A model generated the notes under the pieces. The model ran no database searches. It had not been told where the DNA came from and was given only the letters and a program-made list of their open reading frames with translations. Positions 21,922 to 24,023 of a DNA stretch of 32,000 bases are shown piece after piece. Source of the DNA: Thermofilum pendens Hrk 5 (GTDB lineage: Archaea; Thermoproteota; Thermoprotei; Thermofilales; Thermofilaceae). The stretch covers positions 870,001-902,000 of the forward strand of contig NC_008698.1 of the NCBI RefSeq assembly GCF_000015225.1. Direction: 5' to 3'. The position numbers and the translations under genes were made by a program. The first letter of the stretch is position 1. Every line of letters begins with the position of its first letter.

Positions 21922-22665
21922 ATGATACTCCTCTATACCTCGGAGAACCACAGGGTGGCGGTTTTCAGGGAGCTAACGCCGAAAGGGCAGGTACAGACAA
22001 ACCAGTTCATCATCGTCGACGGGGACGAAGCCCTCTTGGCGGATACAAGCGGGAGGGCTGTCTTCGCGAAGCTCCTCTCTCAAGTCTCCGTGCTCGCTCC
22101 ACCAACCAAGGTGAAGTACCTGTTCTACACGCACCAGGACCCAGACGTCATTGGGGCGGCAGCGAGCTGGTACACCGCTCTTCCAAACGCGAAGATAGTG
22201 TTGCCCGAGCTGTGGGTAAGGTTCCTCCCGCACGTCTTCCCGCCGGACGTGAACATTGAGAACAGAGTCGTACCAGTCGGCGACAGCGGGGCAGAGCTAC
22301 AGCTCGGAAACTGCACCCTCAAGCTCATACCGGCTCACTTCCTCCACTCCCCCGGCAACTTCAGCCTCTACGACCCCTGCTCGAAGATCCTCTACAGCGG
22401 AGACGTCCTTGCATCCCTGTTGCCGCCCGACAAGGACTACGACTTCGCGCCGAGCTTCGAGGAACACGTGAAGTACATGGAGCCGTTCCACAAGCGGTAC
22501 ATGGCGTCCGGGAAAGCCCTCAAAGCTTGGGTATCAAGGGTGAAAGCCCTCGACGTGGAAACAATAGTCCCGCAGCACGGAGCAATTTTAAAGTCCAAGG
22601 AGGTAGTCCAAAAAGCTCTCGCATGGCTCGAAAACCTCGAGGCCGGAGTAGACCTACTCTACTAA
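21922..22665 (+). CDS. Metallo-beta-lactamase-fold protein with flavodiiron/ODP-like metal motif
   Basis: 247 aa. YTHQDPDVIG (H-x-D-x-D in place of HxHxDH / HxExDH), AHFLHSPG, LYSGDVL and VPQHGAIL occur in the order of MBL/FDP metal ligands. No flavodoxin domain. Confidence 0.6.
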   Translation: MILLYTSENHRVAVFRELTPKGQVQTNQFIIVDGDEALLADTSGRAVFAKLLSQVSVLAPPTKVKYLFYTHQDPDVIGAAASWYTALPNAKIVLPELWVRFLPHVFPPDVNIENRVVPVGDSGAELQLGNCTLKLIPAHFLHSPGNFSLYDPCSKILYSGDVLASLLPPDKDYDFAPSFEEHVKYMEPFHKRYMASGKALKAWVSRVKALDVETIVPQHGAILKSKEVVQKALAWLENLEAGVDLLY

Positions 22666-22677
22666 GCACACGTAAGG

Positions 22678-22684
22678 TTTTTAA
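22678..22684 (+). promoter_or_regulatory. Upstream TATA candidate TTTTTAA for the permuted tRNA transcript
   Basis: Centre +27 predicts a TSS near 22708, i.e. at the first base of the leader helix (22709). Confidence 0.4.
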
Positions 22685-22692
22685 CCCTCTCT

Positions 22693-22700
22693 TTATAAAG
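22693..22700 (+). promoter_or_regulatory. Second TATA candidate TTTATAAA
   Basis: Best TATA match in the region. Centre +27 predicts a TSS near 22723-22724, inside the UUU bulge of the BHB. Confidence 0.35.
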
Positions 22701-22724
22701 AAAATCTAGCCGCCCGCCCGAATT

Positions 22725-22741
22725 TCCGGGCGCGGGGACCA
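22725..22741 (+). tRNA. 3' segment of tRNA-Tyr (positions 60-76: U60, T-stem 3' strand, acceptor 3' strand, A73, encoded CCA)
   Basis: U CCGGG CGCGGGG A CCA. It pairs with CCCGG (22849..22853) and CCCCGCG (22743..22749). Confidence 0.8.
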
Positions 22742-22742
22742 G

Positions 22743-22778
22743 CCCCGCGTAGCTCAGCGGTAGAGCATCCGGCTGTAG
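22743..22778 (+). tRNA. 5' segment exon 1 of tRNA-Tyr (positions 1-37, anticodon GUA at 22775..22777)
   Basis: Acceptor 5' strand, D-arm GCUC/AGCGGUA/GAGC, anticodon stem UCCGG, loop CUGUAG. Confidence 0.8.
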
Positions 22779-22837
22779 GCTATGCCACGCGGCGACCGCC
22801 CGGCGTAGACCGGGGGATGAAGCCGCGGCAGCCGGAG
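22779..22837 (+). other. tRNA intron (~59 nt) in the anticodon loop (37/38, or equivalently 35/36 or 36/37)
   Basis: Removal joins CUGUAG to A-CCGGA-GGGCC-CCCGG, giving a standard class I tRNA. AG precedes both junctions, so the exact cut sites are degenerate by up to 2 nt. The BHB is relaxed (see findings). Confidence 0.6.
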
Positions 22838-22859
22838 ACCGGAGGGCCCCCGGTTCGAA
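22838..22859 (+). tRNA. 5' segment exon 2 of tRNA-Tyr (positions 38-59)
   Basis: A38, CCGGA (39-43), GGGCC variable loop, CCCGG T-stem, UUCGAA of the T-loop up to the predicted BHB cut after A22859. Confidence 0.75.
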
Positions 22860-23067
22860 TGGCGGGCGGCCGTTTCGCTTTCCTCCCTTCTCGCCGCTCT
22901 CCCAAGGTGATCGTTACAAACAGCGCGGTGGCGGTTAGGGTGCCGCTAGGAAAAGCGCGCGGGCGGGCACTCTTCTACAGGGGCTCTTGTAAAGCTTGTC
23001 GTGCTACGTTGCTAGCCGCGTTTCCGGCACCGTTTATCGTCGAACGAGCATTCAACGTCAGTTAAAC

Positions 23068-23075
23068 ATTAATAT
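23068..23075 (+). promoter_or_regulatory. TATA box ATTAATAT
   Basis: Centred ~28 bp upstream of ATG 23100. Confidence 0.45.
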
Positions 23076-23099
23076 CAGGGCTTACTAAGCTTTTTCCCA

Positions 23100-24023
23100 A
23101 TGGATATCCCGAGGAACCTCTTCGAGATACTCGTGGCGGTCGTGAACGCCTACGAGGCTACCGGTAGGCCTGTAACGAGCTCCGAGATCGCGGAGGCTGT
23201 GGGGAAGAGCGATGGGACCGTGAGGAACGTGATATCCGCCTTAAAGGCGATGGGGCTCGTCGAGGCGAAGACGGGGCCCGGCGGCGGCTACGTGCCGACA
23301 GTCAAGGGTGTCGAGGCTGTTAAGGGCTCGCTGGCCTTGGATAAGCTCTGGGAGCCGCAGAGGCTCGTGGTGGACGGTCGTGTCTCGAGGCTCTACGTTG
23401 TCGAGCTAGACCTCCTCGCGCTGTCCGGGCCGGGAGCGAAGGCTGTGCTCAAGGTTGCCGGGAGCATGCACCAGGTGCGCAGAGGCTCCCAGGTGATCCT
23501 GGGGCCTACCGGCGGCACGAGGCTCATCATACACGGGAGGGTTCAGGACGTGAACCCGGCTCGCCGCGAGTTGCTGGTAGAGGTGGACTCGATGGTCGCC
23601 GTGCCGAGGCTTAGAGCCAGGGACGTGATGACGCCTAGGCCGGAGCGGGCTACGCGGGGGATGTCGATGAGGGAGGTTGCGCGCCTCATAGTATCAAGGA
23701 ACATCAGGGCTCTCCCGGTGGTAGACGAGGAGGGCGTCTTGGAGGGCTTGGTCTCCGCTCAGCACGTCTCGAAGGCCTACGCCGATGGCAGGCTGGACGC
23801 GAGAGTGGAGGACTACATGGACAGGGACGTGGCGACCGTCGAGCCGGACGAGGACATACTCAGGATAATGAGAATCATGGTCGAGAGGAACGCCGGGAGA
23901 GTCGTAGTCGTGGACCAGTCCGGTAGGCCCCAAGGCATAATCACGAGGACGGACATACTCATGGCGCTGACGAGGCTCTACGAGGTCGCCGACTCATTCG
24001 CGGTGCAGGAACTCGGTGATTGA
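23100..24023 (+). CDS. Transcriptional regulator with N-terminal winged-helix domain and C-terminal CBS pair
   Basis: 307 aa. wHTH-like SSEIAEAVGKSDGTVRNVISALKAMGLVEAKTGPGGGYVPT. Two CBS repeats (VMTPRPERA...ALPVVDEEGVLEGLVS and YMDRDVATV...RVVVVDQSGRPQGIITRTDIL). Confidence 0.75.
   Translation: MDIPRNLFEILVAVVNAYEATGRPVTSSEIAEAVGKSDGTVRNVISALKAMGLVEAKTGPGGGYVPTVKGVEAVKGSLALDKLWEPQRLVVDGRVSRLYVVELDLLALSGPGAKAVLKVAGSMHQVRRGSQVILGPTGGTRLIIHGRVQDVNPARRELLVEVDSMVAVPRLRARDVMTPRPERATRGMSMREVARLIVSRNIRALPVVDEEGVLEGLVSAQHVSKAYADGRLDARVEDYMDRDVATVEPDEDILRIMRIMVERNAGRVVVVDQSGRPQGIITRTDILMALTRLYEVADSFAVQELGD

Follow-up and report, generated by a model that had tools for sequence, protein, structure and literature searches.

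The stretch of DNA analysed here, called the window in what follows, is 32,000 nucleotides (nt) long, comes from the archaeon Thermofilum pendens Hrk5 and carries a circularly permuted gene for tRNA-Tyr with the anticodon GUA. The gene is read in permuted order along one strand, tRNA positions 60-76 lying at 22725..22741 and positions 1-59 following at 22743..22859; this arrangement, in which the 3' part precedes the 5' part on a single strand and reassembly yields a canonical cloverleaf, is that of a type IV permuted gene with its junction at 59/60. A preliminary description of the window had located the missing 3' part upstream, one base ahead of the acceptor strand CCCCGCG, and on reading 22500..23100 and extracting each segment that it named we found all of its coordinates and pairings in agreement with the sequence. 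Joining 22743..22778, 22838..22859 and 22725..22741 yields, as that description had claimed, a 75-nt cloverleaf whose stem pairs are 100% Watson-Crick, and ARAGORN recognizes the product as tRNA-Tyr(gta) whether the intron is removed or retained, reporting in the latter case an intron of 59 nt (22779..22837). The anticodon GUA, the pair C1-G72 and the discriminator base A73 are identity elements of archaeal tRNA-Tyr. All three are read in the reassembled sequence, together with A14, G15, G18G19, C48 and the T-loop UUCGAAU.

Standard finders do not detect the gene in its native order. ARAGORN finds 0 tRNAs in the unrearranged window of 32 kilobases (kb), and Rfam reports across the whole window no tRNA at the gathering score and none at E <= 1; a local Rfam search returned a partial tRNA match only, at 16 bits against a threshold of 29. 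Failure on the intact window is the expected outcome because the gene is permuted, and it agrees with the earlier statement that such programs miss the gene. Neither ARAGORN nor Rfam finds any other tRNA within the window.

Two permuted tRNA genes of T. pendens have been described by Chan, Cozen and Lowe (2011, Genome Biol 12:R38, PMC3218864). Their Table 1 and text place the halves of tRNA-Tyr(GUA) at 892743 (+) for the 5' half, of 117 nt, and at 892725 (+) for the 3' half, of 17 nt, the two being ligated at 59/60. They further give an intron at 37/38, an intervening sequence of 1 nt, a CCA encoded in the genome and a promoter at -65; the gene is given there as single-copy and as the sole tRNA-Tyr gene of the genome. 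In Soma (2014, PMC3978253) the gene is entered as type IV; its intervening sequence measures 1 nt and its 37/38 intron 59 nt, the bulge-helix-bulge (BHB) of that intron being placed in class 'no H'. The gene in the window equals the published locus base for base (5' half 22743..22859, 117 nt; 3' half 22725..22741, 17 nt), the offset being exactly 870,000; since starts and lengths of both halves match at a constant offset, the window is NC_008698 870001..902000. Three proteins encoded in the window are moreover identical to proteins of T. pendens Hrk5 (ABL78342.1, ABL78347.1 and ABL78334.1). With high confidence, then, we identify the gene with the single-copy circularly permuted tRNA-Tyr(GUA) gene of T. 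pendens Hrk5 described by Chan et al. The gene was already known, and its detection from raw sequence is a correct, base-exact rediscovery; the preliminary description had foreseen this should the DNA prove to be from T. pendens, and every published value for the tRNA-Tyr locus matches.

Homologous loci in Thermofilales

Genome and metagenome collections were scanned with a pattern made of GGACCA, a gap of 0-12 nt and CCNNNNN-TAGCTCAG...GGTAGAGC, which fixes the acceptor and D-arm sequences and leaves leader, trailer, spacer and intron unconstrained; matches were then filtered by pairing of the 7 bases 5' of ACCA with the 7 bases 3' of the spacer. The scan gave 13 genome loci and 35 metagenome loci, from which the acceptor-pairing filter left 27 loci of Thermofilales type, 5 from genomes and 22 from metagenomes. 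Together with the window these make 28 loci, corresponding to 23 distinct sequences from about nine lineages, all with the same permuted tRNA-Tyr. The five genome matches are titled as Thermofilales, Thermofilaceae or Thermofilum metagenome-assembled genomes (MAGs), and one Logan contig (L001) is an exact copy of the T. pendens locus. T. pendens Hrk5 itself is not among the genome-scan matches although the window fits the pattern, and the other cultured Thermofilum and Infirmifilum genomes gave no match in the genome scan, the tRNA-Tyr there being either off-pattern or not assessable.

In all 23 sequences the 3' part precedes the 5' part, position 60 is T, CCA is encoded and an intron interrupts 37/38, and all 23 are tRNA-Tyr(gta) on reassembly, with four distinct mature sequences among them. 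What varies is the leader/trailer helix, of 9-16 base pairs (bp), and the acceptor-loop spacer, of 1, 2, 8, 9 or 10 nt, the 2-, 8- and 10-nt forms being represented by L007, L002 and L024, respectively. Synteny with the window extends to the closest lineage only, the L016 group (~50-85% protein identity), and is uninformative for the deeper lineages. At four loci (L020, L021, L022 and L036) 3.5-4.2 kb of extra DNA separates the permuted tRNA-Tyr from the counterpart of its immediate neighbour gene in T. pendens; these may be insertions beside the tRNA gene.

Among the matches set aside, L005 and L009 from Thermoplasmata proved to be normal, contiguous tRNA-Tyr genes preceded by a GGACCA that occurs there by chance, scoring 4/7 in the acceptor test, and the bacterial matches failed the acceptor-complement test, resemble YrlA (L011, L013) or lie in a tRNA cluster (L047). 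The units in L011 (2865..3130, Kineosporia rhizophila) and L013 (6290..6470, an alphaproteobacterial MAG) comprise a T-arm, an acceptor hairpin closed by ACCA plus 4 nt, and a D-arm, that of L011 being enclosed in a 21-bp long-range helix. A Ro60/TROVE gene directly follows each of them (Pfam E = 1e-44 and 1e-12, respectively); they fall below the Rfam YrlA threshold, ARAGORN reports none as a tRNA, and by layout they look like YrlA-type bacterial Y RNAs. In L047 (3640..3790, metagenome contig Ga0222714_10013323) the 3' end of a tRNA (T-arm, ATGGGGG-A-CCA) stands 1 nt ahead of the matching 5' acceptor strand and a D-arm that breaks off, just upstream of an eight-gene bacterial tRNA cluster; this could be a rearranged or fragmentary tRNA.

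The terminal bulge-helix-bulge and the junction

The strict form of the motif, hBHBh', is defined by two 3-nt bulges (B), a 4-bp helix (H) between them and flanking helices (h, h') of >2 bp (Soma 2014, PMC3978253; Marck and Grosjean 2003). The terminal junction of the T. pendens gene has exactly this form, with a 10-bp h, a 3-nt B, a 4-bp H, a 3-nt B and a 5-bp h' that is the T-stem. When 22705..22875 is folded without constraints, the minimum free energy (MFE) structure contains the outer helix of 10 bp, the central helix of 4 bp, the two 3-nt bulges and the T-stem, as well as the acceptor stem, which forms a hairpin with the loop ACCAG. At -102.3 kcal/mol it lies below the dinucleotide shuffles (-84.5 +/- 4.0; z = -4.48), and 0/200 shuffles were as good. 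The canonical hBHBh' of the preliminary description, with 10/10 pairs in the outer helix, CGAA paired to UUCG and the bulges UUU and AAU, is thereby found both in the sequence and in a fold computed free of constraints.

Pairs were counted on our alignment of the homologous sequences (A1), with the structure as first described. Over this structure 94.4% of cells are paired, compared with 84.7% in column shuffles, of which 0/500 reach 94.4%; the covariation score is 0.245 versus 0.090 in the shuffles, and sliding the 3' partner by one column lowers pairing to ~50%. Two-sided changes that keep pairing occur at 10/10 outer-helix pairs across the 23 sequences, and in the central helix 91% of cells are paired, through G-U and A-U changes. 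The unpaired outer-helix cells all come from the six A1 sequences of the L016 group, which has a 4-nt trailer bulge, and in its own register that group forms 13-14 of 14 pairs. Other variants of the motif are a 4-nt leader bulge in the L015 group, a U.U mismatch in the central helix of the L016 group and a T-loop UUCAAAU in L030 and L037; the strict hBHBh' is relaxed in some homologues by a 4-nt bulge or by the U.U mismatch in H. By fold energy and by covariation, the leader/trailer structure is beyond chance, and the 23 distinct sequences, in which the terminal helix covaries throughout, constitute an independent evolutionary proof of it.

The known rule for BHB motifs places the endonuclease cut within each bulge, after the second base. 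The first trailer base of T. pendens, T22860, is the same letter as U60 (T22725), and junctions at 59/60 and 60/61 would give an identical product in this species. This ambiguity is resolved because the first trailer base of the other lineages is A or G and not T; only a junction at 59/60 restores U60 in every case. Ligation of A22859 to U22725, proposed from the start as the step that recreates the 7-nt T-loop, is in agreement with the junction of Chan et al., and 60/61 is excluded by the homologue comparison. Coordinates of the gene and its flanking elements are collected in Table 1.

Table 1. Elements of the permuted tRNA-Tyr(GUA) locus of T. pendens (positions in the window)
Feature	Coordinates	Strand	Basis
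TATA-like box TTTTTAA	22678..22684	+	-65 from C1 (22743) as in Chan et al.; position kept in 23 homologous sequences
Outer helix (h), leader strand GCCGCCCGCC	22709..22718	+	10/10 Watson-Crick with trailer; in MFE fold; compensatory changes at all 10 pairs
Central 4-bp helix (H), leader strand CGAA; partner UUCG at 22854..22857 (U54-G57)	22719..22722	+	Sequence and MFE fold
5' bulge UUU, 3 nt; predicted cut 22724/22725, U22725 becoming tRNA position 60	22723..22725	+	Geometry from fold; cut from BHB rule
3' part, tRNA positions 60-76: U60, T-stem 3' strand CCGGG, acceptor 3' strand CGCGGGG, A73, encoded CCA	22725..22741	+	17-nt 3' half at 892725 in Chan et al., Table 1
Intervening sequence, 1 nt (G), between A76 and C1	22742..22742	+	Sequence; literature value also 1 nt
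tRNA positions 1-37: acceptor 5' strand CCCCGCG (22743..22749), D-arm, anticodon stem 5' strand, anticodon GUA (22775..22777)	22743..22778	+	ARAGORN on reassembly; start of 5' half at 892743 in Chan et al.
Intron, 59 nt, canonical 37/38 position, relaxed BHB	22779..22837	+	ARAGORN; Soma 2014 lists 59 nt at 37/38
tRNA positions 38-59: anticodon stem 3' strand, variable loop GGGCC, T-stem 5' strand CCCGG, T-loop U54-A59	22838..22859	+	Reassembly
3' bulge AAU, 3 nt; predicted cut 22859/22860, A22859 (position 59) ligated to U22725	22858..22860	+	Fold geometry; published 59/60 junction
Outer helix, trailer strand GGCGGGCGGC	22861..22870	+	Perfect complement of 22709..22718

The neighbours of the tRNA gene in the window encode an ODP-family metallo-beta-lactamase (21922..22665) and a CBS-domain winged-helix regulator (23100..24023), neither of them related to tRNA processing. 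A look-up of contigs encoding the upstream reading frame (21922..22662) gave no record, probably owing to a different annotated start. Intron, T-arm and trailer are overlapped by an open reading frame of 82 codons (22817..23065, +), which is almost certainly not a gene.

Transcription unit

The first T of the TATA-like box TTTTTAA, at 22678, stands at -65 from 22743. A TATA-like box (CTTAAAAG, CTTTAAAC, CTTATATAC, CTAATAAAT, TTTTTAAC and similar) is found ~24-31 nt 5' of the leader helix in 23/23 homologous sequences and in every lineage. With the usual archaeal spacing between TATA box and start, transcription is predicted to begin at about 22707..22709, at or just before the leader helix. 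The preliminary description had named transcripts without the leader 22709..22718 as an outcome that would speak against the gene; in silico, the position of the box predicts a start at or before that helix. A second AT-rich box, TTTATAAA, lies at 22693..22700 between the TATA-like box and the leader helix, and was considered as the promoter; 22678..22684 was preferred, as it alone is positionally conserved and matches the published -65. With no space for a second promoter in the 1-nt spacer, the two halves have to share one transcript, and the spacer together with the conserved TATA-like box at the published position is what a single transcription unit should display in silico.

The intron

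The BHB at 37/38 of T. pendens differs from the terminal one. Its central helix, CUGU against CCGG, has 3/4 pairs (C32-G, U33.G and G34-C, with U35 opposite C22832) and its h' is ~2 bp, short of the strict hBHBh' and in agreement with the 'no H' class of Soma 2014 (PMC3978253); the crenarchaeal enzyme should nevertheless accept this relaxed motif. Most other lineages, as read from their sequences, have a full 4-bp central helix at this site (GCGG or GCAG against CUGU). When RNAfold is applied to the intron BHB, the nearest-neighbour model favours an internal loop or an exon-intron helix.

Within the intron three conserved elements stand out: 1) An inner helix, CGCGGC/GCCGCG (22788..22793 / 22822..22827), is conserved with compensatory changes from G-C to A-U across lineages. 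2) This helix is flanked by a conserved GA (22794..22795) and AUGA (22817..22820), the T and G of the latter being invariant and both A's present in at least 90% of sequences; the pair of motifs may be kink-turn-like, and a canonical kink-turn was rejected as the bulged strand is one base too long for the standard register. 3) CAGCCGG (22829..22835) is invariant and could compete with the anticodon stem by pairing with exon positions 28-34, a pairing that the free MFE fold of the T. pendens precursor favours by 2.1 kcal/mol. A box C/D guide RNA in the intron was likewise rejected, judged by eye and with no scan made: most lineages are without a D box/CUGA, and no guide complementarity was seen beyond CAGCCGG.

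The lineages of L003 (and L025), L007 and L014 have 78-81 nt between G37 and A38 versus 59-63 nt elsewhere. A short repeat, either ACCGGT or AACCG, brackets their extra ~20 nt, so that an additional small intron may lie in or beside the 3' strand of the anticodon stem.

A proposed processing pathway

The maturation of this tRNA might proceed as follows: 1) A single transcript would start ~25 nt 3' of the box at 22678..22684, at or just before 22709, and run beyond 22870. 2) Its leader and trailer would pair into the strict hBHBh', giving in order the 10-bp helix, a 3-nt bulge, the 4-bp helix, a 3-nt bulge and the T-stem. 3) The archaeal splicing endonuclease, which is a heterotetramer in T. 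pendens (Soma 2014, PMC3978253), would cut after the second base of each bulge, at 22724/22725 and 22859/22860. 4) An RNA ligase would join A59 to U60, completing the T-loop UUCGAAU and closing a circle, as both ends belong to one molecule. 5) The same enzymes would excise the 59-nt intron at 37/38, before or after the end-joining. 6) The circle would be opened at the acceptor loop ACCA-G-C1, presumably by RNase P 5' of C1, and the extra G trimmed from the 3' end. 7) The final product would be a 75-nt tRNA with its genome-encoded CCA. What is inferred in this scheme is where transcription starts, which enzymes act, that the RNA passes through a circle, in what order the steps follow and how the 1-nt spacer is removed; cleavage and ligation are modelled on known BHB-processing biochemistry (reviewed in PMC3978253).

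Several points weigh against a permuted tRNA-Tyr processed in this way. The TTTATAAA box, if used, would start transcription inside or after the leader helix, though it is unconserved in the other lineages. The intron BHB is relaxed, and in the unconstrained MFE fold exon positions 27-35 are engaged by the intron rather than in the anticodon stem, by a difference of 2.1 kcal/mol. Soma (2014, PMC3978253) calls the circular intermediate unclear for archaeal permuted pre-tRNAs and the pathway unexamined. The single-copy status is that given by Chan et al. (PMC3218864), our own scans covering the 32-kb window, and the conservation of acceptor and D-arm among the matches is partly ascertainment, since the scan pattern fixed those sequences.

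The most serious alternative concerns the circle, and leaves gene and product as they are. The acceptor loop might be cut first, by RNase P 5' of C1 and/or by 3' trimming after CCA, leaving two RNAs held together by the acceptor stem, the T-stem and the leader/trailer helix, which would then be cut at the BHB and ligated as in split tRNAs. The acceptor hairpin closed by ACCAG is predicted to be present already in the fold of the linear precursor, so the RNase P site would precede ligation; split tRNAs of other Crenarchaeota are joined via similar helices, and Soma (2014, PMC3978253) leaves open in which order the archaeal steps take place. Against this, circular intermediates have been reported in Cyanidioschyzon merolae, whose genes have the same 59/60 layout (Soma et al. 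2007, as related in PMC3978253), and a 5-nt loop with a 1-nt leader would possibly be a poor substrate for RNase P before the full tRNA shape has formed. We consider an acceptor-first order unlikely, and retain the pathway through a circular intermediate as our proposal.

A possibly ancient trait, or a relic

About nine diverged lineages keep the 59/60 junction, U60 and CCA while the helix, the spacer (1-10 nt) and the bulges (3-4 nt) vary. On this comparison of sequences we lean, by no wide measure, towards the view that the permuted tRNA-Tyr is an old trait common to many Thermofilales lineages, fixed once and kept under selection, and not a peculiarity of T. pendens. If so, the permutation event would have to be dated much earlier than an acquisition by T. 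pendens would imply. In the literature searched we found no report of this breadth across Thermofilales, of the covariation or of the intron features; the papers of 2014-2025 among them refer, where archaeal permuted tRNAs are concerned, to Chan et al. 2011 alone.

The same comparison bears on whether the locus is a functional gene at all. It could be a non-functional relic left, for example, by a tandem tRNA duplication or an integration event, with Tyr codons read by the product of another gene; standard finders make no call here, and tandem duplication followed by loss of the outer halves is the standard model for the origin of permuted genes (PMC3978253). A relic would not be expected to have its helix rewritten by compensatory substitutions, and the layout, the exact 59/60 junction, U60, CCA and a pairing-competent leader and trailer are kept across the diverged lineages, with a promoter box at a fixed upstream distance. 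As Chan et al. (PMC3218864) give this as the sole tRNA-Tyr gene of the genome, we regard a relic as very improbable. That the locus is a tRNA-like module of another non-coding RNA, as in bacterial YrlA / Y RNAs, and not a tRNA precursor, is hardly credible: a sub-threshold Rfam YrlA match does cover 22731..22766, and our pattern also caught the bacterial L011 and L013, with their T-arm, acceptor hairpin and D-arm beside Ro60/TROVE genes, but the match scores 16.3 bits against the 69-bit threshold of the family (RF02553), the neighbours are the ODP metallo-beta-lactamase and the CBS-domain regulator with no Ro60/Rsr gene nearby, and the locus has a full GUA anticodon arm, the Tyr identity elements, a 37/38 intron and a BHB that restores a 7-nt T-loop.

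Taken as a functional gene, and single-copy as Chan et al. give it, the locus would supply an essential tRNA that can be obtained only by cutting and rejoining the ends of its transcript; splicing endonuclease and ligase would therefore be indispensable. The gene itself is nothing new, being a textbook archaeal permuted tRNA. The homologue set is a modest, incremental and possibly unreported extension, which shows the arrangement to be widespread in Thermofilales and should be useful in designing processing experiments, the natural spacers of 1-10 nt offering a substrate series for how the acceptor loop is opened.

Comparison with known systems

With respect to the published tRNA-Tyr of T. pendens there is no difference in the gene; the homologues and the covariation are added here, and were out of reach in 2011, when the family was represented by the T. 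pendens genome alone. The second permuted gene of the organism, tRNA-iMet(CAU), shares the 59/60 junction, a canonical intron and an encoded CCA (Chan et al., PMC3218864), and differs in isotype, in its 7-nt intervening sequence and in its location at 539254, outside the window. Soma 2014 (PMC3978253) classes the two T. pendens junctions as 'no H or hBHBh'' without assigning them to genes; as the Tyr junction is strict hBHBh', that of iMet, whose sequence we did not inspect, would by elimination be the 'no H' case.

The permuted tRNA genes of Cyanidioschyzon merolae resemble the T. pendens gene in that the 3' half comes first, the transcript ends form a BHB and the T-loop is joined at 59/60. 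Unlike it, they lack an encoded CCA, their intervening sequences measure 8-38 nt and their sequences are unrelated; circular intermediates and aminoacylation have been demonstrated experimentally for them (Soma et al. 2007, as related in PMC3978253), whereas the archaeal gene is known from sequence. In the split tRNAs of Nanoarchaeum, Caldivirga, Aeropyrum and Staphylothermus a GC-rich helix likewise unites the pieces and presents a BHB to splicing endonuclease and ligase, but the halves are separate transcripts with promoters of their own, while those of T. pendens lie 1 nt apart on the same strand behind one promoter. The tRNA-like domain of bacterial YrlA / Y RNAs has the same permuted order of T-arm, hairpin-closed acceptor stem and D-arm; it is not processed to a tRNA and is without anticodon arm, intron and BHB, the likeness being one of layout only.

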